A stretch of DNA of 64,000 nt, taken from assembly GCA_001794025.1 (NCBI GenBank), contig MGJA01000012.1:8455-72454 (forward strand), in the 5' to 3' direction. Below, one piece after another: positions 5,359 through 59,958 of this stretch. The notes under the pieces were generated by a model. The model was given only the letters and a program-made list of their open reading frames with translations, had not been told where the DNA came from and did not search any database. The stretch's first letter is position 1; every line of letters begins with the position of its first letter. The DNA is from Candidatus Yanofskybacteria bacterium RIFCSPHIGHO2_01_FULL_41_21 (GTDB taxonomy: Bacteria > Patescibacteriota > Minisyncoccia > 2-02-FULL-40-12 > GWA2-44-9). A program made the translations under genes and the position numbers.

Positions 5359-5756
5359 AGTTTTATAACTTGTCGGGCGCTCGACCAGTCGCCTTTGGCG
5401 ACCAAGGCCGTACGCTTTTGACCAATTTCTTCGTTAAATCCTGCGTTTACTCCTCACCATATGTTTATATGGCTCGTCGTAATACTCGGATTTTCCTTGA
5501 ACTTGGTCAAACCGACTGCGTTCTAAATTATTTGTCTTTTTCAATAGTTAACGACCAGAACTATTGTTTTCCTTGGTTATTTTAACCCTGCTTTCCAATT
5601 GTCTAGGTTTTCCGCGAAAATTGCAACCCCCCTGTTGATAATGCCCATATGCGGTCTAAAAAAAACAGGACCCATCGCGGGTATTGTTTTAAAAAAAATA
5701 AAACTAAAAGCAAGGTTAGTATTCCTGTAAAAATACCATAAAATCGGCTGGAGAAA

Positions 5757-5870
5757 CTGAAAACCTACTTTTTGACCCAGTAGCGGAAGGGGTCCCGCGA
5801 AGCGGGGAAACCGACGGTCCGCCAACTGGCGGATGGTTTCCCGGGTCTGGGGCAAATGAGCAGGTTTTCA
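5757..5870. repeat. Family A GC-rich palindromic multi-hairpin element, copy A1 (variant flanks CTGAAAACCT / AGGTTTTCAG)
   Basis: Core GACCCAGTAGCGGAAGGGGTCCCGCGAAGCGGGGAAACCGACGGTCCGCCAACTGGCGGATGGTTTCCCGGGTCTGGGG is shared with the 7583, 42909 and 59798 copies. Compensatory changes preserve the stems (GGAAACC/GGTTTCC versus GGAACC/GGTTCC; CCCGCGAAGCGGG versus CCCAGCGAAGCTGGG). Confidence 0.6.
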
Positions 5871-5872
5871 GT

Positions 5873-7405
5873 TTATCTGGCGTATTCTAATGCTCGTGTC
5901 TCTCTAATAACATTCACGCGGATTTCGCCTGGGTATTTCATTTCTTCTTCAATTTTGCGGGCGACATCTTTCGCAAGCTTGATAGCACCGAGGTCATCAA
6001 TACGGGTTGGAGTAACGAAAATACGTAATTCACGGCCGGCTTGGATAGCGTAGGATTTTTCAACGCCTTCAAAACTGGTGGCGATTCTTTCTAATTCTTC
6101 CAGACGTTTTAAGTAAACCTCAACCGTATCTTTACGCGCGCCCGGTCGAGCGCCGGAGATGGCGTCGGCGGCCTGAACAATGCGGGCTTCCAAAATCGCA
6201 TAAGGATATTCATCGTGATGGGCCTCCATAGCTTGAATCACCCGCGGGTCTACATTGAATTTTTGCAGAACTTTTCGGCCAATTTCCACGTGCGTCCCCT
6301 GCACTTCATGATCAAGAGCTTTCCCGATGTCATGGAATAAAGCGCCTTTCTTTGCCAAAGAAACATCAGCGCCTAATTCCGAAGCCAGCATGCCCGCAAT
6401 ATGAGTCATCTCTACCGAGTGGCGCAAAATATTTTGTCCGAAACTGGTTCTAAAAGCCAAACGACCTAACAAAAAAGTAAGTTTTGGATCAACTGGGCCA
6501 ACGCCGGTCTCAAATAAAGCTGCCTCCCCTTCTTCTTTAATTTTGGCATTTATCTCTTCGTTGGCCTTTTGAACTTCTTCTTCAATCTTAGCGGGATGAA
6601 TACGACCATCAGCAATAAGTTTTTCAATAGCAATTCTGGCAATTTGGCGACGAACAGGATCAAAACCGGAAATAACCAAGGCCTCCGGTGTATCATCAAT
6701 GATTACATCTACTCCCGTTAAACGTTCAATAGTTTTAATATTACGTCCCTCTTTCCCGATGATTTTACCCTTTACTTCATCTGATGGGAGACCAACAACT
6801 GTGGTCATTGAATCGGAAATATGAGAACCGGCGTAACGCTGGACAGCGAGAGTGACAATTTCACGGGCTTTCTTTTCTATTTCTTCTTGATTATCAGTAT
6901 CGAGCTTGTGTATTTTACGATAAAGTTCATCTTTTGATTCTTCTTCAATTTTAGTAATTAATTCCGCTTTGGCGGTTTCCCGATTTAAACTGGCAATACG
7001 TTCAAGTTCACTAATTTGTTTGAGACGGGTCTCTTCAATTTGAGATTTTATAACCACAACCTCTTCGGCTTTGTTTTTTAGCTGTTCTTTTTCTTGGCCC
7101 AATTCTTTGGATTTTTGTTCCAATTCGGTCTCTTTGCGGATAAGTAAACTTTCAATACGCGAAAGCTGAGCCGAACGCTCTTTTTCTTCTTTCTTTGATT
7201 CTTCCAGGGTCTTTAAAGCCGTATTCTTGGCTTCAAGAACTATGTCTTGGGCCTGCGACTTACCATCGTTGATGATTTGCTGAGCTCGTGACTCAGCGTT
7301 GGTGGCTCGTTTAGAGGCGATGAACTGTCGAGCAAAGTACCCGATTCCAATACCGAAAAGTGCGCCCAAAAGTCCCGCTACAAGCGTGGATAATACAATA
7401 GTCAT
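5873..7405 (-). CDS. rny: ribonuclease Y
   Basis: 510 aa. N-terminal TM, long coiled-coil, KH domain (VVGLPSDEVKGKIIGKEGRNIKTIE) and HD domain (HSVEMTHIAGMLASELGAD...ALFHDIGKA). Confidence 0.9.
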   Translation of the reverse strand: MTIVLSTLVAGLLGALFGIGIGYFARQFIASKRATNAESRAQQIINDGKSQAQDIVLEAKNTALKTLEESKKEEKERSAQLSRIESLLIRKETELEQKSKELGQEKEQLKNKAEEVVVIKSQIEETRLKQISELERIASLNRETAKAELITKIEEESKDELYRKIHKLDTDNQEEIEKKAREIVTLAVQRYAGSHISDSMTTVVGLPSDEVKGKIIGKEGRNIKTIERLTGVDVIIDDTPEALVISGFDPVRRQIARIAIEKLIADGRIHPAKIEEEVQKANEEINAKIKEEGEAALFETGVGPVDPKLTFLLGRLAFRTSFGQNILRHSVEMTHIAGMLASELGADVSLAKKGALFHDIGKALDHEVQGTHVEIGRKVLQKFNVDPRVIQAMEAHHDEYPYAILEARIVQAADAISGARPGARKDTVEVYLKRLEELERIATSFEGVEKSYAIQAGRELRIFVTPTRIDDLGAIKLAKDVARKIEEEMKYPGEIRVNVIRETRALEYAR

Positions 7406-7582
7406 TGGTTGGTAGAGTTAGAAAAACCATTTTGGTACTTCTAGCTAATATTAAAGGAAAGTTAACTCTACTATACCTAAAAGTTTGGTTTTATGCAAAT
7501 TGGGTTGTTAACAGTCCATTTCGCCCGATTACCATTTTATTGCGGCTTCATTGCGAGAAGTCGCACAGTAATTTAATCTTAA

Positions 7583-7762
7583 GTCACTTGGGGGTATACT
7601 CTTAGACCCAGTAGCGGAAGGGGTCCCAGCGAAGCTGGGGGAACCGACGGTCCGCCAGCTGGCGGATGGTTCCCCGGGTCTGGGGATAAGAGTATGCCCC
7701 AAGTGACGTTGATACAATTTGAGGAGCAACTGAGTCGGGAGTTGGGTGGAGGAAGTGGAATC
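7583..7762. repeat. Family A element copy A2 with 22-bp TIRs (GTCACTTGGGGGTATACTCTTA ... TAAGAGTATGCCCCAAGTGAC) and about 55-nt conserved tail
   Basis: Near-identical core to A1 and A4. Flanking TIRs and the GTTGGGTGGAGG tail are seen directly. Lies between rny and gpmI. Confidence 0.6.
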
Positions 7763-11904: not shown

Positions 11905-12065
11905 CCAATTCGAGACAATCTAGACGTTACAGGAGTTGGTTGATATAATTAACGGTCAGCAGACCGATCAACCAACGAACTGCAATGCGAGTTTAGCTGA
12001 GGTGACGAAGGTAGCCCGAAGGGTACCAAGGAACCGGAGGCGTGTCGAGAATGGGTTACGACTCC
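11905..12065. repeat. Family B about 160-nt structured element, copy B1, immediately 3' of the 12072..13445 gene
   Basis: About 90% identical to 49908..50068. On the minus (gene-sense) strand it forms nested hairpins GUUGGUUGAU[CGGUC-UGCU-GACCG]...AUCAACCAAC and GGUACCC-UUCG-GGCUACC (UUCG tetraloop). Confidence 0.55.
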
Positions 12066-13445: not shown

Positions 13446-14736
13446 AATTTACACAATCAGCCCGAGTACTTTTAGAATTACCGCAATAATAGGCCTTGGA
13501 TGCGGCAATTTCGCCGGCTCTGGTTTTAGAATTGGCTCCACCACGAGAAAGTTTTGCCGCCGCCGCGATAAAAGCATCTTCTATATTCCAGGGATTTGCT
13601 AAGGGACGACCCGTAATTCTGGCAACCTCGTCTTTATAGCCCATCCAAGTTGAGGGAATAAACTGGGCCGGCCCCATTGCACCACCCCAACCATTACCTA
13701 TCGGACAAGACACAGCTGTCGTTTCCGGATCCATCCCTAATTCAGATGTAATTTTTAAAAATGGTTGGATATCGCGAGTAGGTTTCATAATAACTCTATA
13801 ACCCTTTGAGGGTGGATCGCCAGCCCGATTACATTTGCCGACATTTCGTCCTAACCCGGATTCAAGTTCAAGTTCAGCAATAAGAAATGCCGGGCGAATA
13901 CCGGTTGCAATTGCGGCCAGATTACCAAATTTAACAGCATCGTCAGCCGTCACGCCATTTTGCTGTAAGTAAAAAATCTCGGCTTTAATTTTTTCTATCT
14001 TAGATTGAGATTGACTTACTAATGTCTGAAATTTTGATTCTTGACCCTTTGTCTCTTTTAAAAGTTTGTCTTTTTGGGCCTTATTTTGATCAACACTTCT
14101 TTTATTAATTTCTTCCAGACCTTTCTGTTTTTCAAGATCGGTTCGTTTGTCTTCCAGTTCTTGCCCCTTTTCTTCAAGTGACACTTTGAGAGCTTGAATC
14201 CCATCTATGACCACCCTCAACTCATCTTGGGTTGTTTTAATACTATTTAAATCAGTGAAAAAATCTGAAAGCGCTTCGTGTTTGAGTAAAACAGTGGTCA
14301 ATGTCTCTTGATCGTTTTGATATAAAATTCTTAAATACTGTCCCAAGATAACCTGATTCTTGGCAATTTCTACTTCGGCTTCCTTAATTTTTTCTTGAGT
14401 GCTTTGAACTTCAGAATTTGTCTTGGCAATGGAGAGACCCAAGCTTTTTATTTCTAAGTTAAGTTGATTTATTTTGGCGTTTAATTTAGATACCTCGCTC
14501 TGAAGCGTCACTTTTGTGGGTTGAATCGCATCAATTTGTTGCTGATATTGTTCTATTTCTCGTTGAATTGCATCAATTTCAGAATATTTTTTATTTACGT
14601 CATCAGTAACAGCTGCTTGAGCCAAAAGACCGAAACACAACCCCGACATGATTATTGCCGAAAACCCGCCCAACCAGATGATTCTGGTCATTCGGGCAGG
14701 TACTAAAAACCCCCGATATTCTAATACTCGTTTCAT
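13396..14736 (-). CDS. coiled-coil protein with C-terminal lytic murein transglycosylase (SLT) domain
   Basis: ELESGLG ... GAMGPAQFIPSTW is a classic SLT catalytic motif. Long N-terminal coiled coil after a TM helix. The ORF-track start 14865 extends through Family C element C-b; the start is probably Met at 14736 (MKRVLEY) or 14691. Confidence 0.7.
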   Translation of the reverse strand: MKRVLEYRGFLVPARMTRIIWLGGFSAIIMSGLCFGLLAQAAVTDDVNKKYSEIDAIQREIEQYQQQIDAIQPTKVTLQSEVSKLNAKINQLNLEIKSLGLSIAKTNSEVQSTQEKIKEAEVEIAKNQVILGQYLRILYQNDQETLTTVLLKHEALSDFFTDLNSIKTTQDELRVVIDGIQALKVSLEEKGQELEDKRTDLEKQKGLEEINKRSVDQNKAQKDKLLKETKGQESKFQTLVSQSQSKIEKIKAEIFYLQQNGVTADDAVKFGNLAAIATGIRPAFLIAELELESGLGRNVGKCNRAGDPPSKGYRVIMKPTRDIQPFLKITSELGMDPETTAVSCPIGNGWGGAMGPAQFIPSTWMGYKDEVARITGRPLANPWNIEDAFIAAAAKLSRGGANSKTRAGEIAASKAYYCGNSKSTRADCVNYANKVQALSNRIEQNL

Positions 14737-14747
14737 CCCAGGTAGTA

Positions 14748-14872
14748 GAAATCCGACCTGCGCTTTGTTTTGCTTACTAAAACGCAAGAATAATATCTCT
14801 ATTTTATCTATTAAATGCCACAAATAGTGAAGGTTAAGCGCATGCAAAACATGTCGGATTTTCACTACCTGG
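14748..14872. mobile_element. Family C MITE-like element, long copy (C-b)
   Basis: TIRs CCAGGTAGTAGAAATCCGAC ... GTCGGATTTTCACTACCTGG. Sits 11 nt upstream of the likely start of the transglycosylase gene. Confidence 0.55.
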
Positions 14873-15008: not shown

Positions 15009-17225
15009 ATGATAAAAGTCCAAAATAATCTCCGACGTTTTGTCTGTTTTCTTTTAGTTATCTTAGCATCTTTTATTTTTGTAAATTCGGTCTCAGCTGT
15101 CACTCTTGGAATTTCCGGAAATCGTTTTACTCTTGATGGCCAAGCCAAATTTTTGGTCTTAAGTGGTTATTGGGATGGCTTGGATGCTCCTAATCCATCA
15201 GCTGACCTTAATTATCTTAAATCTAAAGGGTTTGATGGTATTAGAATATTTCCTAATTTGTGGGATTATTGTGCTGGTTGTTCTTCTGAATTTACACCTG
15301 GCAACAACCCAGTTATTAAACCCGATGGAACCATAAACCAATCTAGATTAAATCAATTAATTTCAATTATAGACACGGCAAATAGTTTGGGAATGATTGT
15401 TGATGTAACATTTGCCAGAGAAACAATAGCAGGAAATTGCCAAGCTAGCGCGGGGAATCCTGTTATTTGTATCACAGAATTTAAAAATGGAGTTATATCC
15501 GTCGTTAATGCTCTTAAAAATAAAACTAATGTTTTTTACGATTTATCTAATGAATACGATCATCCAGCAATAGATGTCCCTAATGCTGATATAATAGACC
15601 TCAAAAATAGAATCCGAAGTAACGTGGGGACAAACATAATTCTCTCTGTTTCTAGTAGCCAACCCAGCGGCTCTGTAGCAATAAATAATGCCCGTTCTAT
15701 GGGTATGAATTTAGTAAGTGTTCACTGGGCTTCTGGAACAACAGAATTAAATACCAGCCTTTATCCTGGTTCAATAATTTCATCTTTGCCGACATATGTG
15801 GGAGAGCCATATAATACCCACTCTGTGTCTGGTTACACTTCAGCGGAACTTATAAATGGAGTGGTAGAAGCAAAGAAGGCCGGTATCGCCGCTTGGTTGT
15901 TCCATTCAGATGCCACTTTCTTATCAAATGGTGAATATCCAATTAGATTTCAAAGCAATGAACAAGGATTTGTAAATAGTTTTTTATCGGCTTTACAAAG
16001 TGTAACTTGGGGTGGGGGTGGGGGCGGGGGTGGGACGGTACCACCGCCAACCAGTGGGGCTTGCATAAATCCGGCACCGGCCACATCAACTGTTCCGGAC
16101 ATGAAATCGGTTGTCCAAGGGGTAGCAGCGGCTCATCCAAACTGGTTACAAGACGTGTGTAATAGTTATGATTTTATAGACGAAGTAGTAAGACAATTAA
16201 GGGCTGGCCCAGGCGGGACGAGATGGGCTTATGAAGCGAAGCGGGCCAACTTAAGTGATCCTTGGCAGGAAGGAATTTCTTATTACTACGGTTCAGGAAA
16301 CGCACCAACTCCAGGAACAATGAGTCAATATGAGGTCTTTGCAATTGATATCGTTCATCAATATTGCGGTGTTGCCGGCGGAGGCACAAATACTGCTGAT
16401 TGGAATGTTGCAGATTGGCCTTATCGCAGTCCAAACTTAGTAGAAGTCGCTTATCTCTATCCAAGAAACGCCGGTGGCTCTCTGCCTGCTCCCCAACTTT
16501 GTACGGGGCAACCCCCTCCCCAGCCGCCACCGCCGCCCACCGGTCCGCCGACAATAACCGGTATCAGTCCTCTAAGAGCGGCTATCGGTCAAACAGTAGA
16601 AATTTATGGCACGAATTTAGTTGAAGATATTAAATTAGAATTATCGGATGGAAGATTTTACACGGTAACAGGAGTAGTTGATTTTCAAAGAACAACTCTT
16701 AGTTTCACAGTCCCCGATGCTCCCGCCGGTTCCTACAAAATATCTATCACCGGACCAAGTGGTTCAGCTACCAGTCCTCAAAATTTAGAAGTAGTTGCTG
16801 GTGGTTCCGGCTTCCCCCCTCCCCTTAACCTAGGTGTGCCTTCAGAAGGTCTACCAACTGATTTAGGACAGCTTATTGAGGCAATATTCAGTTGGTCTCT
16901 TTCTTTGATTGGTTTAGTTATCTTTGTCCGTTTCTTCTATGCCGGATTCTTATGGTTTACGGCGGCGGGTAATACAAATAGGACGGGACAAGCAAAAGAT
17001 ATAATGAAAAACGCCATTTATGGCGCTTTGATTCTTTTCTCGGCTTGGTTGATTCTTAATACTATCAACCCTGATTTGGTGGGAGGGGTCTTTGATTTAC
17101 CGGGGCTATCGGGGACGGCACCAACAAGCGGGACAGGAGGAACAGGAACAGCGGTCACTTGTAACAATGGTGTTTGCAGTAATGGTTTTACTGGGCCTTG
17201 TCAGGCCCCAACTGACTGTCAATAA
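15009..17225 (+). CDS. large secreted multidomain protein: signal peptide, GH5-like glycoside hydrolase region, poly-Gly and poly-Pro linkers, IPT/TIG-like domain, C-terminal two-helix TrbC/VirB2-pilin-like module, Cys-rich tail
   Basis: Signal peptide FVCFLLVILASFIFVNSVSA. LSNEYDHP resembles the GH5 NEP acid/base motif. ITGISP...VEIYGTNL is IPT/TIG-like. The C-terminal 100 aa (LIEAIFSWSLSLIGLVIFVRFFYAGFLWFTAAGN...AKDIMKNAIYGALILFSAWLIL) has two hydrophobic helices separated by a short loop. Confidence 0.8.
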   Translation: MIKVQNNLRRFVCFLLVILASFIFVNSVSAVTLGISGNRFTLDGQAKFLVLSGYWDGLDAPNPSADLNYLKSKGFDGIRIFPNLWDYCAGCSSEFTPGNNPVIKPDGTINQSRLNQLISIIDTANSLGMIVDVTFARETIAGNCQASAGNPVICITEFKNGVISVVNALKNKTNVFYDLSNEYDHPAIDVPNADIIDLKNRIRSNVGTNIILSVSSSQPSGSVAINNARSMGMNLVSVHWASGTTELNTSLYPGSIISSLPTYVGEPYNTHSVSGYTSAELINGVVEAKKAGIAAWLFHSDATFLSNGEYPIRFQSNEQGFVNSFLSALQSVTWGGGGGGGGTVPPPTSGACINPAPATSTVPDMKSVVQGVAAAHPNWLQDVCNSYDFIDEVVRQLRAGPGGTRWAYEAKRANLSDPWQEGISYYYGSGNAPTPGTMSQYEVFAIDIVHQYCGVAGGGTNTADWNVADWPYRSPNLVEVAYLYPRNAGGSLPAPQLCTGQPPPQPPPPPTGPPTITGISPLRAAIGQTVEIYGTNLVEDIKLELSDGRFYTVTGVVDFQRTTLSFTVPDAPAGSYKISITGPSGSATSPQNLEVVAGGSGFPPPLNLGVPSEGLPTDLGQLIEAIFSWSLSLIGLVIFVRFFYAGFLWFTAAGNTNRTGQAKDIMKNAIYGALILFSAWLILNTINPDLVGGVFDLPGLSGTAPTSGTGGTGTAVTCNNGVCSNGFTGPCQAPTDCQ
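16803..17110 (+). repeat. duplicated about 308-nt C-terminal module (copy 1) shared with 19264..19571 at about 93-95% nucleotide identity
   Basis: Direct comparison of the two nucleotide stretches; they differ only at scattered positions. Confidence 0.8.
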
Positions 17226-17256: not shown

Positions 17257-19587
17257 ATGGCAAATCGTATCCTAAAATTACTCTTAATAACGTTTCTTTT
17301 TATATTTCCCATACAATTAGTTTTTTCCAGTATTCCTCAATCTCTTCCTGCTCCGACTCATTCTATAATGTTCGGATATTATCATGTCGACTCACAATAC
17401 GGCGACTTTAAAGATGAAGTAAAGGACTACACAAACACCCAACTTATTCTTCAAGAAAGTTTTTTGAGAAGCGACCTAAATAATATCCAAGAATTTAATG
17501 ATGCTTTTGATGAGACGATAACCTTGGGACATAAAATTGTCTATGTCTTGGGGACGGACTGGAATCAAGGTCTTAATGCCGTTAAGCCCTATTGGAATAA
17601 CGTTGAGTTTATTTACTTAGCTGATGAGCCGAGTTGGGATAAAGCAACAACAGAGACCAATATTACTAATTTTAAAAATTTAGTAACCCAAGCCGGACTG
17701 GCTCAAAAACAGATAGCTATCAATTATACCCCCCAACAAATCCAAACTGGCACCAGTTATCAAGCCGTTAATCTAGACATCATCGGATTTGAAGCATATG
17801 TAGATCCGGCCAAGCAAGATGACCCCAATATCCTGACAATTTTAGAAGATCAGATAGATGCTTCCAAGCAAAAAATAGGCAATAAAAAAATGTTTATTGT
17901 TATTCAGGCCTATGACCGAAACGGTGTCTGGAAAAACATGACCTCTATTCAGGATATCCAAATTACCCCATACTTAAAATCTTACAATGATAGTAATGTC
18001 ATCGGCCTGTTTATGTTTTCTTATGCCCGATCGGGCGGAACGAGAGACAACCCGACCCTAAAAACAGCCCATCAATTAATCAGCGATACTTTGCTCGGAA
18101 AAGGACCCATTGAATCAACAATTACCGACGTCACTACAGGTTGGGGCGGTAGCTTGGCTTTTAATCCAACAAATAATACATGGATGGTTGTTAGTCACCA
18201 TCATACAATGAAAGATATATTTGCTCGTTTACTCGATAATAATGGTAACCCCTTAACCGTTATGACTACCGTTGACCAAGAACCTACATTTCTTACGGGC
18301 GGTCCAGAAGTGGCTTATTCTCCTGATATAAATAAATTCTTAATTGTCTGGTGGCAAGAAAATATTACAGACACTTCCGCGGACATTTATGGTCGTTTCA
18401 TGTCAGCTGACGGTGCTCTCTTGGGGAATGCCTTTAATCTTACCCCAAATGACTCTCGGGTTCCCTATCTCGCCGAAAGTTCAATAATGCAATACGATTC
18501 CCGCAATAAAAAATTTGTCTTTGCTTTTGAAAACAGGGCCCCAGGAAATGTGTCGGTCTATTTAAAAACGGTCGGCATAGACGGAACTGTCGGACCAACT
18601 TTGATGATAGCTGAAAATCCGCCGGATTTTTTGGGCGCACCATCATTAGCGATAAATGAAACAGGAAATGAATATTGCATAAGTTACCAAAATGCCGGCG
18701 CCAATCAACCCAATAAATTAGCCGCAGAATCAAGTAGTTTGGCTGTAAAAAGGATTGATGCCTCCACCATGCAAGTCGGACCTGAAACATTTGTTTCTAA
18801 CGATATGTACTACAACGGTGGTATCGTTTACAATTCACAAGAGGATAAATATTTTGCCACTTGGACCAACTACGCTTTAAGCACCGGACTTGCAAAAACT
18901 CTCAACTCCTGCGACGGTACAGACACTGATGATACTGAAGATATTGATATTTCTACTTCGGGAGTTATTTCTTATAACCCAAAATCAAATACTTATGCTC
19001 TGATTGCTCAAGATTGTTGTAGTGTACGCAACAACTACATTATTTTTGACACGTCTTTAAATGTCCTGGAACAAGGAACCGTGTTCACTGATTCCAAAAA
19101 ATCTGAAATAACAGGTGACCCCGAAGCTGGCGGTAATTTTGCTCCAGTAATCATGGCTAACACTAACAACGGGACATATGGTGCCACTTCCAGTATGGAT
19201 TATGCTACCACAAGATTTGCCTCCAATGTTGGTTCGACTGTTCTGCTTGGTAGAACATATAGCGGTTCCGGCTTCCCCCCTCCACTTAATCTGGGTGTAC
19301 CTTCAGAAGGTCTACCAACTGATTTAGGACAGCTTATTGAGGCAATATTCAGTTGGTCTCTTTCTTTGATTGGTTTAGTTATCTTTGTCCGTTTCTTCTA
19401 TGCCGGATTCTTATGGTTTACGGCAGCTGGTAATACATCAAATACAAGTAAAGCAAAGGATATAATGAAGAACGCCGTTTATGGCGCTTTGATTCTTTTC
19501 TCGGCTTGGTTGATTCTTAATACTATCAATCCTGACCTGGTGGGAGGGGGCTTTGATCTACCGGGATTGAGTGGTGGGATGCCTTAA
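17257..19587 (+). CDS. large secreted protein: signal peptide, glycoside-hydrolase-like region (IYLADEPSW), beta-rich repeat region, same C-terminal TrbC/VirB2-like two-helix module
   Basis: Signal peptide ILKLLLITFLFIFPIQLVFSS. C-terminal 100 aa nearly identical to the preceding gene. Confidence 0.8.
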   Translation: MANRILKLLLITFLFIFPIQLVFSSIPQSLPAPTHSIMFGYYHVDSQYGDFKDEVKDYTNTQLILQESFLRSDLNNIQEFNDAFDETITLGHKIVYVLGTDWNQGLNAVKPYWNNVEFIYLADEPSWDKATTETNITNFKNLVTQAGLAQKQIAINYTPQQIQTGTSYQAVNLDIIGFEAYVDPAKQDDPNILTILEDQIDASKQKIGNKKMFIVIQAYDRNGVWKNMTSIQDIQITPYLKSYNDSNVIGLFMFSYARSGGTRDNPTLKTAHQLISDTLLGKGPIESTITDVTTGWGGSLAFNPTNNTWMVVSHHHTMKDIFARLLDNNGNPLTVMTTVDQEPTFLTGGPEVAYSPDINKFLIVWWQENITDTSADIYGRFMSADGALLGNAFNLTPNDSRVPYLAESSIMQYDSRNKKFVFAFENRAPGNVSVYLKTVGIDGTVGPTLMIAENPPDFLGAPSLAINETGNEYCISYQNAGANQPNKLAAESSSLAVKRIDASTMQVGPETFVSNDMYYNGGIVYNSQEDKYFATWTNYALSTGLAKTLNSCDGTDTDDTEDIDISTSGVISYNPKSNTYALIAQDCCSVRNNYIIFDTSLNVLEQGTVFTDSKKSEITGDPEAGGNFAPVIMANTNNGTYGATSSMDYATTRFASNVGSTVLLGRTYSGSGFPPPLNLGVPSEGLPTDLGQLIEAIFSWSLSLIGLVIFVRFFYAGFLWFTAAGNTSNTSKAKDIMKNAVYGALILFSAWLILNTINPDLVGGGFDLPGLSGGMP
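19264..19571 (+). repeat. duplicated C-terminal module (copy 2)
   Basis: See 16803..17110. Confidence 0.8.
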
Positions 19588-32843: not shown

Positions 32844-32917
32844 TGGCTGCGGGGGAAGGAATCGAACCTTCATTTTAGGATTCAAAGTCCCGCGTCCTAC
32901 CGTTAGACGACCCCGCA
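32844..32917 (-). tRNA. tRNA-Gln (anticodon TTG), CCA encoded
   Basis: Minus strand: UGCGGGG-UC-GUCUAACGGUAGGAC-G-CGGGA-CUUUGAA-UCCUA-AAAU-GAAGG-UUCGAUU-CCUUC-CCCCGCA-G-CCA. Cloverleaf folds with a 7-bp acceptor, GG-containing D-loop, UUCGAUU T-loop and anticodon UUG. One C-A mismatch closes the anticodon stem. Confidence 0.75.
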
Positions 32918-42908: not shown

Positions 42909-43127
42909 CGGCTTCCGCTCGGAGTTCGCTCCCTCCACCCCAAACTCGATTATCCATCAAATTGTGTCAACGTCACTTGGGGTATACTCTTATCCCCAGA
43001 CCCAGGGAACCAGTCCCGTCGGTTCCCGAGGCGATTCTAGAGGCGGCTAAAGCACGCCTCCAAGAAACTTCGCCTTGACCAAAGGGTCCCCTTCCGCTAC
43101 TGGGTCTAAGAGTATACCCCAAGTGAC
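42909..43127. repeat. Family A element copy A3 (inverted orientation; GCGAAGC hairpin replaced by a 56-nt nested-hairpin insert)
   Basis: TIRs GTCACTTGGGGTATACTCTTA ... TAAGAGTATACCCCAAGTGAC. Core and tail match A2/A4 in reverse complement. Confidence 0.6.
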
Positions 43128-43171
43128 TTAAAATTAAATTACTCTCTTTTTTGGGTATTTTTTTAAATAAA

Positions 43172-43210
43172 AAAAGACCCCGTCGGAAGTCGCAATGTGG
43201 ACGGGGCTTT
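43172..43210 (-). terminator. rho-independent terminator (strong on minus strand)
   Basis: GACCCCGTC-GGAAGTCGCAATGTG-GACGGGGC. On the minus strand it is followed by UCUUUUUUUAUUU. Confidence 0.6.
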
Positions 43211-43700
43211 GTAGATTTTGGAGAGTAACGGGTCCGGACGGTGCGAACGAGTGATTTCCTCGTCGCACCGTCCGGCCGCCAGCCGGGCGATCGGCACGGA
43301 TCTTGGGCGCGGAGGTGTCACACCGCCCTCACCTTTAGCCGACCGCCCCGACTTCGTTTTCTCTGGCCGCCACAGAATTGTCATTGGTGCCGGTACGGGT
43401 ACGGGGAGCTCTCCCGACCCATGCGGCCCACCAAGCAATTGGTGAGGGCCAGACGTTCATCGCGATTGAGTCGCGACACTTACAGACCGGGTAAATAAAG
43501 GTCTCTATGAGAACATCGTCGAACCCCTCCTGGGGTGTACCTTTATCCACACACGGTCTTTTTAATGACCTGGGTTGCTGGAGACAGTTGGACGTCTCGG
43601 AGTTTTTTATTTCTCCGGCTCCCTTAGGCCCAGGTCAATTCATGAGCAACGGGCTCGCAAAAACCAATACCTACTCGCCCGTCCGTAGTTATACGGAGGA
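43211..43700 (-). ncRNA. GC-rich (about 60% GC) roughly 500-nt non-coding island with multiple stable hairpins; candidate structured ncRNA of unknown class, or a decayed GC-rich mobile insertion
   Basis: No credible ORF. Composition is very different from the roughly 38% GC surroundings. Has a 15-bp hairpin GGACGGUGCGAACGAG/CUCGUCGCACCGUCC and ends at the 43172 terminator on the minus strand. I tested tmRNA, RNase P and SRP consensus motifs by eye and could not place them. Confidence 0.3.
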
Positions 43701-44031
43701 GGGCTAACGCTCGCTATATATACGAACTTCTCTATGTTTCTATCGGCCTATTCAACTAAATAAAGTGATGATGCCTGAAAATAGCGTATTTACTGGTTTT
43801 TGCGAGCCCATTACTGGGCTCTTTATAAAGAACAGACCTATACAACCATTATAGCACCCTGCGCCTAGGAAGTCAACCCCGCCGTTGAGAAGCGACATTT
43901 AGGGCTAATTAATGGCTTTAAACCTATGTAAATTGTTCCCACCATTATTTTACCTATAGTCCATTTGAAGAATATTCATCGCTTCTCAACGGCGGGGTCA
44001 ATACCCCACAAAATTGGTATAACATAAGGGG

Positions 44032-44886
44032 CTATTTGAAGTATACTCGGTCATCAAAGCGTAAATCTATGTATTGGGGTTTAAGTGTTCCATTGGCCAT
44101 TTTCTGGGTTCTAAATATACGAAACGTATCAAGCTGGTTTTGAAGATTTGAATCAATACTAAACTTAACTAAATAACTTGCTCCAATCGGTAAGATGGGG
44201 TCATTAACCAGAACATCAAACTCTGTGTATGTATCAACGGGGATGGTAATATTTTTAACTTTAACACCTTGCTCAATCAAAATTGGGACGACAGTTTGGA
44301 TGGCTTTAAGAAATTTTGAATAGACCGTTAATGGAGACGTTGATGCCGATTGAATTCGCATATCATTAACGTTGAGTAAAAGCACGCCCGATGATTGAAT
44401 CGCTTGGCCAAACGTCACACCATCGTGGTCAAAGTATCGACAATCGGGAATTTCTTGAGATGAACCCGTAGAAACAAAACACCAGACCCCTTCTGCCCGA
44501 CGTTCGGTCACGGATATTTTTAAGGTATGCAAATATTTTTTCTTAACGGAAACATTCTCTATAAATGAGAATCGGGAAATTAATTCAGCGACTAAAGAAT
44601 CAGATTGAACAAAAAATATATCTCGTCCTATTGGAATACCGAACACTTTACGATTCAGATTCTCATCAATGACCCCCTGAACATCTCTCTGGTGCCCGTC
44701 AGTCAATCCTTCATATGAAATAGTGGTTACTCTCAACCACGGCGCATAAAAAAGAGCGTAACCAATGCCGACAAGAATAACGACAACAACAAAAATAATT
44801 AATCCTATTTTTATCTCAAAACGATGGCGTCGTTTAGACGCCAATTTATCGTTGTGTTTAAATTTTTTAATATCAACAGGACGCAT
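44032..44886 (-). CDS. ftsQ: cell division protein FtsQ/DivIB-like (TM + POTRA)
   Basis: Single TM (IGLIIFVVVVILVGIGYALF) followed by a POTRA-like region. The ORF-track N-terminus MAVMCG is encoded by the TIR of the 44885 element; start is probably MRPVDIKKF at 44886. Confidence 0.6.
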   Translation of the reverse strand: MRPVDIKKFKHNDKLASKRRHRFEIKIGLIIFVVVVILVGIGYALFYAPWLRVTTISYEGLTDGHQRDVQGVIDENLNRKVFGIPIGRDIFFVQSDSLVAELISRFSFIENVSVKKKYLHTLKISVTERRAEGVWCFVSTGSSQEIPDCRYFDHDGVTFGQAIQSSGVLLLNVNDMRIQSASTSPLTVYSKFLKAIQTVVPILIEQGVKVKNITIPVDTYTEFDVLVNDPILPIGASYLVKFSIDSNLQNQLDTFRIFRTQKMANGTLKPQYIDLRFDDRVYFK

Positions 44887-45022
44887 CCCGCACATAACAG
44901 CCATAAATTGCTTTAAGGCAGTACTACGTGTTTAGTACTCGCATGCAACTTCACTATAGCTGTGATTATTAAACTAAGTTAGTCCCGCAATTAGTACTGC
45001 AAATGGCTGTTATGTGCGGGAT
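44885..45022. mobile_element. about 138-nt element with perfect 20-bp TIRs (ATCCCGCACATAACAGCCAT / ATGGCTGTTATGTGCGGGAT) bridging the serS stop and ftsQ start
   Basis: TIRs seen directly. The right TIR contains the last 3 codons and stop of serS; the left TIR overlaps the ftsQ ATG. The interior has AT-rich -10-like hexamers on the minus strand. Confidence 0.55.
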
Positions 45023-49907: not shown

Positions 49908-50068
49908 CCAATTTGAGACAATCGAGACGTTGCAGGAGTTGGTTGATATAATATTTGGTCAGCAGACCGATCAACCAACGAACTGCAATGCGAGTTTAGC
50001 TGAGGTGACGAAGGTAGCCCGAAGGGTACCGAGGAGCCGGAGGCGTGTCGAGAATGGTAAGGACTCTT
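49908..50068. repeat. Family B structured element, copy B2, ending 2 nt before the greA stop codon
   Basis: See 11905..12065. Confidence 0.55.
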
Positions 50069-53102: not shown

Positions 53103-53884
53103 TACCGTATAACAACGACCGAACCTTGACCAGGTTGAACCGAAGGATTAACACTTATTTTTTTAAAAAGTTGGGTGTCATTATTATCAATATTCCGAAC
53201 AACCCCAATCACTAAACCGGCCGGAGTTGTATCGTCTCCTGTTGTAATAATTATATCTTCTTCCGAAATGACATCGACCTGGGTGATAAGGTTAAAATTC
53301 ATGCCATCAGCCAATGCGCCATGGATAATACCGCTGGTTTGACCGTTTAATACACGGGCGGTAACTGAAAAGGCGGGATCAGTTATAAGCATCACTCGAG
53401 ATGACGTTGAAAAAACTGAACTTATTTTACCGATAAGCTCTCCATTCAAAGAAACAGCCATTTGGTCCACAGTGACTCCATCCGTCAATCCCTTGTTAAT
53501 CAACGCGTAATGGCCATCGGGTCCAAGAGAGATGTTAAATATTCCGGCCGACAACAAATCACGTTTTAAACGGGTCTTCAGACCAATTGCTTTTTTTAAA
53601 ATATCATTTTCGTTTTGGAGCGCTTCAATAGTCGCCAAGGTTGAGACCTGATTGGCGATTAAATCACGGAGCTTGGCGTTTTCAGTAGATAAATTTTTCC
53701 ATTGTTTAACATATCCGAACCATTCCCTTGTCTGGCCGACAATATCAAATAACGAAACCCCCGCAGATATCCCCGGCGCATATTGACGACGCACAGCGTG
53801 AAGCAAAACAATGTTTAGGGCGATTAGGACCGTAAGAATTATGGCTGAAATAAATAATAGTTTAGAAATATTTTCACTGCGCAT
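53102..53884 (-). CDS. mreC: rod shape-determining protein MreC
   Basis: N-terminal TM, coiled-coil, then beta-domains with G-rich motifs (LINKGLTDGVTVDQMAV ... GQTSGIIHG). Confidence 0.8.
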   Translation of the reverse strand: MRSENISKLLFISAIILTVLIALNIVLLHAVRRQYAPGISAGVSLFDIVGQTREWFGYVKQWKNLSTENAKLRDLIANQVSTLATIEALQNENDILKKAIGLKTRLKRDLLSAGIFNISLGPDGHYALINKGLTDGVTVDQMAVSLNGELIGKISSVFSTSSRVMLITDPAFSVTARVLNGQTSGIIHGALADGMNFNLITQVDVISEEDIIITTGDDTTPAGLVIGVVRNIDNNDTQLFKKISVNPSVQPGQGSVVVIR

Positions 53885-54020
53885 CCGGGATAGTAGAAAT
53901 TCGACCTGCGCTTTAGGTTTTTATACCTAAATGCGTACTATCGAATATCATTAAAAACATAATTATGACAAATATTTAATCTAGGCGCCAAAAAAACCCA
54001 GTCGAATTTTCACTACCCGG
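53885..54020. mobile_element. Family C MITE-like element, long copy (C-c), abutting the mreC ATG
   Basis: TIRs CCGGGATAGTAGAAATTCGAC ... GTCGAATTTTCACTACCCGG. Interior shares GACCTGCGCTTTAGGTTTTT and AAACCCAGTCG with C-e. Confidence 0.55.
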
Positions 54021-57940: not shown

Positions 57941-58518
57941 TAGCTTGTCATTAATTCTTGCTCTTTTTTCTTAACCATCTCGTCAATCTTTTTTTGGAGG
58001 TCGTCTACGATTTTTTGAAGTTCGTCTTTGGCTTTGAAGGCCTCATCTTCGCGGGCAGTTTTTTCTTTGACGGCGGTTTGAACTTTTTTAAGAATATCTT
58101 CACGGGTTTGGCGGATGCGGATGCGGACTTCTTCTATTTTTTGATGGAGAATTTTGGTGAATTCTTTGCGTCGTTCTTCATTTAAGGGTGGAATAGTGAG
58201 ACGAATAGTATGACCGTCATTAGCCGGATTCAAACCCAACGAGCTTTCACGAATCGCTTTTTCAATTAATGGCACGACAGTCGCATCCCAGGGTTGAATC
58301 ACAATCACCCGCGGTTCCGGCGCACTAATACTGGCCAGTTCTTTGACTCGTGAACGCGCGCCCAAATATTCAACTTGAATATCTTCTACCAATGATGGGT
58401 TAGCTCGGCCTGTCCGAATTGAGGCCGCTTCCATTTTGGCCATTTCTAAAGCCGAATCAAAATCCTTTTTCCTAGATGCGATTAATTCCTTATACACCAG
58501 GTAGTAGAAATCCGACAT
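57940..58518 (-). CDS. frr: ribosome recycling factor
   Basis: IRTGRANPSLVEDIQVEYLG and C-terminal helical arm. First 8 codons (MSDFYYLV) are encoded by the TIR of Family C element C-e. Confidence 0.85.
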   Translation of the reverse strand: MSDFYYLVYKELIASRKKDFDSALEMAKMEAASIRTGRANPSLVEDIQVEYLGARSRVKELASISAPEPRVIVIQPWDATVVPLIEKAIRESSLGLNPANDGHTIRLTIPPLNEERRKEFTKILHQKIEEVRIRIRQTREDILKKVQTAVKEKTAREDEAFKAKDELQKIVDDLQKKIDEMVKKKEQELMTS

Positions 58519-58632
58519 GCACCTTAGGTTTTAGACCTAACCATGCAACATCAAATTACTTGTTTATATTTAAATTCCCAGATAGTTGATATAATCGGTG
58601 CTACTAAAACCCAGTCGGATTTTCACTACCTG
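58497..58632. mobile_element. Family C MITE-like element, long copy (C-e), overlapping the frr start
   Basis: TIRs CCAGGTAGTAGAAATCCGAC ... GTCGGATTTTCACTACCTGG. Interior contains TTGATATAAT (a -10-like sequence). Confidence 0.55.
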
Positions 58633-58647
58633 GTACATAATCTTATC

Positions 58648-59502: not shown

Positions 59503-59797
59503 ATGATAATTTAACCATATCTAGAATCACTTCGCCACTGGGTTTATTATCGCGGCTTCCTCTTGGACTATTTCTACTCGCTTCTCCTAATTTCTCTGAC
59601 CGCCCGAAGCAACTCCTGTCGGGCCATGCGGCTTCGCTTCGCTCACCCGTTCCCGACATCCTCGGAACGGTTCCCAGAGAAATAGCGTTGAAACTCGTGA
59701 AATAGAACCAATCGTGCAGATGCTCAATAAACCCAGTGGCTCAGTGCTTTTTCTAGAAAAACCCAAAGCGAGAAGTCACGTAGCAATTTAATTCTAA

Positions 59798-59958
59798 GTC
59801 ACTTGGGGTATACTCTTAGACCCAGTAGCGGAAGGGGTCCCAGCGAAGCTGGGGGAACCGACGGGACTGGTTCCCCGGGTCTGGGGATAAGAGTGTACTC
59901 CAAGTGACGTTGATACAGACGGATAATCAAGTCGGGGGTTGGGGTGGAGGGAGCGGAG
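59798..59958. repeat. Family A element copy A4 (TIRs + core + tail; tail overlaps the last codons of murG)
   Basis: Near-identical to A2, with a shortened central hairpin (GGAACCGACGGGACTGGTTCC). Confidence 0.6.

Follow-up and report, generated by a model that had tools for sequence, protein, structure and literature searches.

Several large structured noncoding RNAs (ncRNAs) of bacteria, including OLE, GOLLD, ROOL, raiA and HEARO, are several hundred nucleotides (nt) long, form many helices, are enriched in GC relative to their genomes and are restricted to particular lineages. They were recognized by comparative analysis of long intergenic regions, and their function is not evident from their context. 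RNase P RNA, transfer-messenger RNA (tmRNA) and signal recognition particle (SRP) RNA have a conserved core with lineage-specific helical expansions, a strong promoter, an intrinsic terminator and a single gene copy. All of these traits recur at the locus described here, which lies in a 64,000-nt stretch of DNA (hereafter the window) from Candidatus Yanofskybacteria bacterium RIFCSPHIGHO2_01_FULL_41_21 (contig MGJA01000012.1, positions 8,455 to 72,454). A preliminary description of the window had boxed a GC-rich island at 43140-43700 as either a novel or lineage-specific large structured ncRNA or a remnant of mobile DNA. The island is the fast-evolving, helix-rich 3' part of an ncRNA gene of ~670 nt on the minus strand, and the RNA constitutes a new family of large structured ncRNA, of the kind that can be called orphan large structured bacterial ncRNAs.

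We consider it probable that the locus is a single-copy, independently transcribed gene of ~672 nt for a large structured ncRNA whose family is not in Rfam 15. Conserved synteny, a predicted promoter and terminator, compensatory base changes and the lack of an Rfam 15 match all argue for the first of the two options above. The search for homologs in related genomes yielded 18 distinct copies, obtained by pooling loci from pattern scans with ftsQ-syntenic loci and removing duplicates, and all of them lie between an ftsQ-like gene and a convergent gene for a PMT-type glycosyltransferase. Contigs that encode FtsQ homologs (51-74% identity) display the order lysS, serS, ftsQ, a gap of 575-1135 nt and a convergent PMT/GT39-type pair, and the gap holds an RNA homolog at all 10 ftsQ-syntenic loci for which DNA was available. 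A covariance model recovers one copy per locus, with scores of 120-213 bits on the forward strand versus 16-42 bits on the reverse. These scores, together with G.U pairs in the helices H1, H2 and H6 (Table 1) and the terminator, fix the RNA on the minus strand.

Conservation within the unit is uneven. For identities between non-sister genome pairs, with the 5' domain compared over aligned positions, the ~200-nt 5' domain (43841-43641) is 84-96% identical at the nucleotide level, and the flanking genes are less so (serS, 68-75%; ftsQ, 62-70%; PMT gene, 65-73%). The part 3' of H2, which contains the boxed island, is 43-62% identical. The GC-rich island is thus the variable periphery of the RNA, and the conserved core is the 5' domain, most of which lies outside the box. 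Base composition follows the same division: GC content is 38-46% across members in the 5' domain and 49-61% in the part from H6 to the terminator, which ranges from 118 to 504 nt. The whole unit varies from ~265 to 675 nt among members; L027, L028 and L039 have versions of ~330-350 nt, and the window has the longest of those compared. The enrichment noted in the preliminary description is real, with a GC fraction of 0.569 over 43170-43700 (0.50-0.635 in 200-nt windows) against a background of ~41% (range, 36-44%). The 5' domain has a GC content of just 43% in the window, which is probably why it was left out of the box.

The predicted promoter is of the sigma-70 type, with 11 of 12 consensus matches and a TG before TATAAT, and its position places the transcription start near 43841. 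TTGAC and TG.TATAATG are retained in aligned relatives, and TGATACAAT occurs in three others. At the other end, a GC-rich hairpin directly precedes a U-run on the transcribed strand, as the preliminary description had proposed for this strand. The unit closes with a hairpin and a T-run in every relative, although the sequence differs among relatives, and a consensus promoter and a terminator bracket it in all members. The boundaries of the box are not confirmed: the unit extends ~140 nt further 5', to ~43841, with the promoter reaching 43876, and the stretch that was missed contains most of the conserved 5' domain.

Folding energies and base substitutions point to a structured RNA. Minimum free energy (MFE) prediction for the minus strand of 43160-43720 gives z = -7.0 relative to shuffled controls (plus strand, z = -5.9), and the whole unit folds at -293.4 kcal/mol (z = -11.7) into a multi-branched structure with separate domains. 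The stable helices reported earlier are present, including the 15-bp stem, now located in the hairpin H8. The several GNRA-closed stems reported with them are not, since none of the 14 hairpin loops in the MFE structure is a GNRA loop and the sole conserved one, GUAA in H1 (43814-43811; the N varies, and one member has UUAA(A)), lies outside the box. When the 18 sequences were placed on the covariance model, 97% of the cells at the 36 proposed pairs of the 5' domain were standard pairs, versus 28-47% in a control with partners slid by 1-3 columns. Five pairs changed on both sides, a number matched in none of 500 shuffles. Pairing is kept at 94-100% over the 16 pairs of H2, and both G-C to A-U and G.U/A-U exchanges occur. 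A local complement stands just downstream of the H6 5' strand in every member; loop and register vary, and by eye only one-sided changes were seen.

Farther downstream, a conserved hairpin (CCGGACGG/CCGUCCGG) and its tail stand before the terminator. The basal 8 bp of this hairpin, H8, are conserved in sequence in 12 members, and 5 of the 12 tested pairs (pairs 8-12) covary through C-G, U-A, G-C and U.G, with 14 two-sided cells (0 of 500 shuffles). In a joint fold of the window copy and the relative L011 (85% identical), the 139 pairs include 8 with one-sided and 7 with two-sided changes, and none is broken. Relative to the structure predicted from the window copy alone, substitutions fall in 43 of 180 unpaired columns (24%) and 27 of 303 paired columns (9%), and 13 of the 20 changed pairs in that MFE structure stay paired.

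Table 1. Predicted features of the RNA gene (positions in the window).
Feature	Position	Strand	Remarks
Whole predicted transcription unit, ~672 nt	43170-43841	minus	Promoter/terminator scan, alignments with relatives, fold energy
Promoter (predicted)	43848-43876	minus	-35 TTGACT, 43876-43871; 17-nt spacer; extended -10 TGCTATAAT, 43856-43848
boxA-like element UGUUCUUUAUAA	43823-43834	minus	About +8 to +19 of the predicted transcript
H1 hairpin GAGCCCA-GUAA-UGGGCUC, GNRA loop	43804-43821	minus	7 pairs, formed in 99% of cells (18 sequences)
H2 5' strand GCAAAAACCAGUAAAUAC	43786-43803	minus	Long-range pairing with 43657-43674
Conserved inner domain inside H2	43675-43785	minus	Alignments A4 and A8
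Near-invariant stretch GCUAUUUUCAGGCAUCAUCAC	43765-43785	minus	Inner domain; pattern GCUAUUUUCAGGCA(A/U)CA(A/U)CAC
Inner-domain helix UUUC-GGC/GCC-GAAA	within 43675-43785	minus	Alignments A4 and A8
Hairpin GUUCG/CGAGC	43709-43727	minus	3 of 5 pairs show compensatory changes, C-G to G-C among them
Optional module GCCCUCCUCCGUAUAACUACGGACGGGC	43677-43704	minus	Missing from 8 of 13 sequences of alignment A4
H2 3' strand GUAGGUAUUGGUUUUUGC	43657-43674	minus	GTATTGGTTTTTG invariant in 13 of 13 sequences of alignment A4
H6 hairpin GAGC-CCGUU-GCUC	43644-43656	minus	GAGCCC..GGGUUC in most relatives
GC-rich variable expansion region, set of long hairpins	43278-43643	minus	Core of the boxed island
Small hairpin in expansion region	43459-43477	minus	
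Helix GUCUGGCC/GGCCAGAG in expansion region	43454-43447 with 43368-43361	minus	
H8 hairpin GGCCGGACGG...CCGUCCGGACC (15-bp stem) and conserved tail CCCGUUAC	43225-43277	minus	Stem at 43231-43277
Intrinsic terminator, GC-rich hairpin then U7	43170-43210	minus	Hairpin 43191-43176 and T7; larger hairpin spans 43210-43176

How such an RNA might be made is suggested by its 5' end. The rrn boxA reads UGCUCUUUAACAA, and UGCUCUUUAACA is the consensus of the E. coli rrn boxA. boxA is an RNA site with an 8-nt core, to which NusB-NusE bind to initiate processive antitermination, both in rRNA operons and at the nut sites of phages. boxA elements also shield the long untranslated transcripts of CRISPR arrays from Rho, and a boxA occurs upstream of the arrays in 52 of 187 genera. 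In the RNA studied here, the first conserved element after the predicted start is UGUUCUUUAYAA, or UGUUCUUUA(C/U)AA, in which G.UCUUU is invariant in 7 of 7 aligned sequences; nowhere else does the window match TGTTCTTTAYAA exactly. The element agrees with UGCUCUUUAACA at 9 of 12 positions and with the core at 7 of 8 (8 of 8 in L017, which reads GCUCUUUA), where the consensus is that of E. coli. It is thus a consensus-like 12-mer no more than ~20 nt from the predicted start of what appears to be a long, untranslated and structured transcript, as in rRNA leaders and boxA-led CRISPR arrays; no CRISPR repeats are present here, in contrast to the latter. A boxA followed by a hairpin is also the order in lambda nut. 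The likeness extends further to rRNA operon leaders, which combine a boxA with a leader-trailer helix; here the hairpin is followed by the 5' strand of a helix that could comprise 20-25 bp and whose partner strand stands 110-150 nt downstream, but this helix encloses ~110 nt and no rRNA.

Since the order of boxA, hairpin and long helix mirrors that of the rRNA leader, we propose a mechanism that involves a Nus-modified polymerase, and our best guess is that the product, made with the help of boxA antitermination, is an RNA-protein scaffold of high abundance. By analogy, the boxA-like element would recruit NusB/NusE and allow RNA polymerase to complete the long untranslated transcript. The modified polymerase may also hold the 5' strand of H2 nearby until its partner emerges 110-150 nt later and so aid formation of H2. 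We put this antitermination step at slightly less than an even chance; it would gain support if the rRNA-leader boxA of the same lineage were equal to UGUUCUUUAC. If it is correct, a free-standing ncRNA gene would have borrowed the antitermination and folding machinery of rRNA, whose documented users so far are rRNA, phage nut sites, CRISPR arrays and a few mRNAs. The resulting RNA would be expected to be abundant and stable.

A division of labor between core and periphery is likely. The 5' domain would be the functional core and act as a sequence-specific platform for proteins or another RNA, and the GC-rich helices would be lineage-specific expansions that need only to fold on themselves, serving as a peripheral scaffold or as a stabilizing 3' body. 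The extended form of H2, at 20-25 bp, may be a site for RNase III, but processing there is doubtful and depends on which of two modeled folds forms. A more speculative proposal, to which we attach still less weight, is that this is a hitherto undescribed housekeeping ribonucleoprotein RNA of a Parcubacteria clade that is made like rRNA, with a boxA complex, a helix of the leader-trailer type and possibly RNase III freeing an inner RNA of ~110 nt and a GC-rich 3' RNA, and that it has a core role in, for example, ribosome biogenesis, translation or catalysis as a ribozyme. If that were true, the near-invariance of ~185 nt would reflect multiple macromolecular contacts.

Each of the two scans, of genomes and of metagenomes, searched for a single exact pattern, and the members come from a narrow clade of groundwater Parcubacteria. 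Only 4 of 185,579 GTDB species representatives match the exact pattern; their depositors labeled them Paceibacterota, Taylorbacteria, 'Patescibacteria group' and Yanofskybacteria. Across the family the taxon labels are those of depositors, with Yanofskybacteria, Taylorbacteria or Paceibacterota as the names on the contigs, and at least one label belongs to a small contig from a bin. A second pattern returned 16 metagenome loci, of which 13 are genuine; L026, L034 and L035 were rejected because they fall by chance within a protein-coding gene. Since true members, L038 and L040 among them, escape the strict patterns, the family is wider than the scans suggest.

Several points weigh against the account given above. 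The known distribution is narrow under the strict pattern, and the promoter, the start site and the terminator are predicted from consensus sequences. In the 5' domain, 23 of the 36 pairs never vary, so that covariation support is modest and the fold there draws mostly on conservation and energy. The strands for the H8 covariation test were trimmed by hand, and 7 of the 20 changed pairs in the window-only MFE structure are broken in L011. The boxA assignment is a resemblance at 9 of 12 positions that was spotted after the fact, and the MFE structure pairs part of the element (GUUCUU/AAGAGC). Finally, the segments GAGCCC, GGGCUC, GAGCCC and GGGUUC (GCUC in the window) can form two flanking hairpins, or the middle two can pair, which extends H2 to 20-25 contiguous bp and competes with H1. 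RNAalifold and MFE prediction favor the extended H2; the two pairings are mutually exclusive and agree equally well with the data.

Those four segments are also what gives some appeal to a cis-acting element, either a sensor or attenuator or the 3' untranslated region (UTR) or terminator region of ftsQ, with the GC-rich part as a readout or insulator, because pairing of 1:2 and 3:4, or of 2:3, is attenuator-like and the unit comes immediately after ftsQ, on the same strand, facing the convergent PMT gene. We regard this as improbable. The unit has its own strong conserved promoter, no downstream gene precedes the terminator in any member, no U-run follows the 3:4 hairpin, no riboswitch or leader family matches, and the conservation of H8 and its tail, far downstream, speaks for a single folded RNA. 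It is more improbable still that a divergent copy of a known RNA (RNase P, tmRNA, SRP, 6S or OLE/GOLLD/ROOL/HEARO/raiA) has been missed by current models. Such RNAs typically share its size range, its GC enrichment over the genome, its strong promoter and its variable peripheral helices, the GGGG..UUCGACG string that had been pointed out earlier is present in the window copy, and by our own comparison AAGUCGGGC and GGACCCGUUAC loosely recall CR-I and CR-V of RNase P, whose conserved regions CR-I to CR-V form the P4 pseudoknot. The open reading frame (ORF) ending in VGAVG, also pointed out earlier, is present as well. Yet Rfam 15 found only a tRNA-Gln (32847-32917) in the whole window, and no family approached its threshold, whether at E up to 10 (the locus and the short complete member L039), at E up to 0.1 (six relatives) or by gathering scores (15 further loci). 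The best sub-threshold matches, to the trpB motif (30 bits versus 59) and Atu_C8 (25 versus 50), are hairpin-plus-terminator look-alikes. A tmRNA has a tRNA-like domain (acceptor stem, T-arm and 3' CCA) and a tag reading frame with a resume codon; ARAGORN detected none, either in the window or among 17 relatives, a 1-nt indel disrupts the candidate tag frames, and UUCGACG recurs in L011 but not in six more distant aligned relatives. An RNase P-like P4 between AAGUCGGG and CCCGUU was rejected since the 5' string (AAGUC..GG) pairs locally with a strand just upstream of H8 instead of with the 3' tail, with which it shows no covariation, and the shortest members retain ~120-200 nt beyond the 5' domain, which could not accommodate an RNase P core. 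SRP RNA, marked by its domain IV (helix 8) motif, and 6S RNA, a single long irregular hairpin with a central bubble, matched neither the window nor the relatives in Rfam, and the predicted fold is multi-branched with separate domains; OLE, GOLLD, ROOL, HEARO and raiA matched neither the window nor the relative loci at gathering or permissive thresholds; and the 5' domain resembles none of these RNAs. The earlier rejection of tmRNA, RNase P and SRP is therefore upheld, and the Rfam comparison that the preliminary description had recommended for these and 6S, GOLLD, ROOL, HEARO, OLE and raiA ends with no match to any Rfam 15 family.

The second of the initial options, inert or mobile GC-rich DNA acquired horizontally or as an insertion resembling a miniature inverted-repeat transposable element (MITE), with no RNA function, now appears very remote. 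The GC content is unlike that of the genome, palindromic repeat families abut the locus, the GC-rich part is very variable in length and sequence, and many metagenome contigs break inside it. However, the locus is single copy in the 64-kb window and in each relative locus, falls outside the repeat families of the window and occupies the same syntenic slot in every relative examined, and neither blastn against plasmids and phages nor a scan of viral contigs gave a match. It is also framed by the conserved promoter, junction sequences, H8 hairpin and terminator, and substitutions avoid or compensate paired positions. Least credible of all is that the locus encodes one or more small proteins, from an ORF of 19-36 amino acids (aa) that starts at the AUG of AAUGGGCUC or from island ORFs of 71-91 aa. 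ORFs of 66-91 aa are mechanically present in the island, and some relatives have AAGGAGG and a three-codon mini-ORF before the terminator, an arrangement that the window lacks. In L011, the closest relative, indels of 1, 2 and 5 nt disrupt the island frames, five ORFs had no match in Pfam, and tblastx gave no protein-level similarity between distant members and similar scores for all six frames in the close pair. In the 5' domain, a 1-nt indel between members puts the only ATG-started ORF (MGSQKPV...) out of frame, and invariance is the same at all three codon positions. Readings of GGCAACAACAC..UAG and AUGGGCUCG... as tag peptides or small ORFs were likewise rejected, as their frames differ between members. 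The initial view that the island contains no plausible ORF thus stands, and an ncRNA gene remains our preferred explanation for the locus.

Two other candidates were set aside. A replication origin or terminus was rejected since the GC skew stays negative throughout and the genes keep their orientation across this region. A perfect DnaA-box 9-mer, TTATCCACA, occurs inside the island at 43543-43551 (plus strand); it is probably due to chance, as L011 reads TTATTCACA and there is no change in skew. Splice-site-like strings (CAG|GUAAGU and UUUUUCAG|G) and a weak reverse-strand match to U5 were treated as chance.

The RNA has further features that differ among members. The optional module within H2 is a 28-nt hairpin that exposes an anti-Shine-Dalgarno-like CCUCC and is shared with L015, L017 and L019; since it is near-identical in distant members and missing from most others, either it has been gained and lost repeatedly or it is mobile within the RNA family. 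In L019 (3275-3215) and L021 (5575-5525), both on the minus strand, one expansion helix ends in an A-rich loop of low complexity, 40-50 nt in length (AAAAAAAGAAAAAAAAGAAAACAG...). Just upstream of the terminator in L019 (~3020-2990, minus strand), L030 (~325-360), L011 (~5520-5550) and L015 (~5420-5450) is AAGGAGG or GGGAGG, then 6 nt, then UUG or AUG, which resembles a Shine-Dalgarno sequence with a three-codon mini-ORF; the frame has two codons and UGA in L019, L030 and L011, continues in L015, and the window copy lacks the element. Eight of the 10 same-strain metagenome contigs (L001-L010) end within the RNA gene (window positions 43305-43877), at differing positions, which suggests strain heterogeneity or poor assembly or coverage of GC-rich hairpins.

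The neighbors named in the preliminary description are both present. An ftsQ-like ORF of 290 aa (44032-44904) lies upstream on the same strand, and a copy of Family A, a group of GC-rich palindromic repeats, lies directly after the RNA terminator at 42958-43136. Other Family A copies are at 7570-7742, 59784-59917 and 5739-5889; similar elements flank the RNA in L011 and L019, and L027, L030, L033 and L039 have another kind of palindromic element after the terminator. Between the ftsQ stop codon and the RNA promoter is a perfect 20-bp inverted repeat (43873-43895 and 43979-44001) with a spacer of ~83 nt, whose proximal arm contains the -35 hexamer. The repeat was not found in aligned relatives, and therefore it is probably a palindromic insertion specific to the window, or else the ftsQ terminator. 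The window also contains a 300-nt direct repeat (92%; 16803-17102 and 19264-19563) that by coordinates lies inside two adjacent large ORFs, a 150-nt repeat (94%; 11905-12054 and 49908-50057) with copies 38 kb apart, and a third family of short palindromic repeats (14734-14872, 53882-54020 and 58493-58633).

Bacteria of the Candidate Phyla Radiation (CPR) have tiny genomes and, to our knowledge, almost no experimentally studied ncRNAs, and we found no description of this RNA in the literature on CPR and Parcubacteria ncRNAs. An RNA domain of ~200 nt that is better conserved than a tRNA synthetase gene, stands behind a near-consensus promoter and is retained by all relatives examined points to an important function, since such conservation persists in a genome under strong reduction. 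The natural series of variants from 265 to 675 nt separates the core from dispensable expansions and should be useful for structural work. The RNA differs from RNase P RNA, tmRNA and SRP RNA in that their defining motifs and models are unmatched and in that its core is 5'-terminal and AU-rich. It matches OLE, GOLLD, ROOL, raiA and HEARO in neither sequence nor structure, and its host is a member of the CPR. Moreover, it occupies a fixed, housekeeping-like chromosomal slot rather than a prophage, plasmid or operon, and it joins a near-invariant AU-rich 5' domain and an rRNA-leader-like 5' end to a rapidly changing GC-rich body, a combination that sets it apart from these five RNAs.

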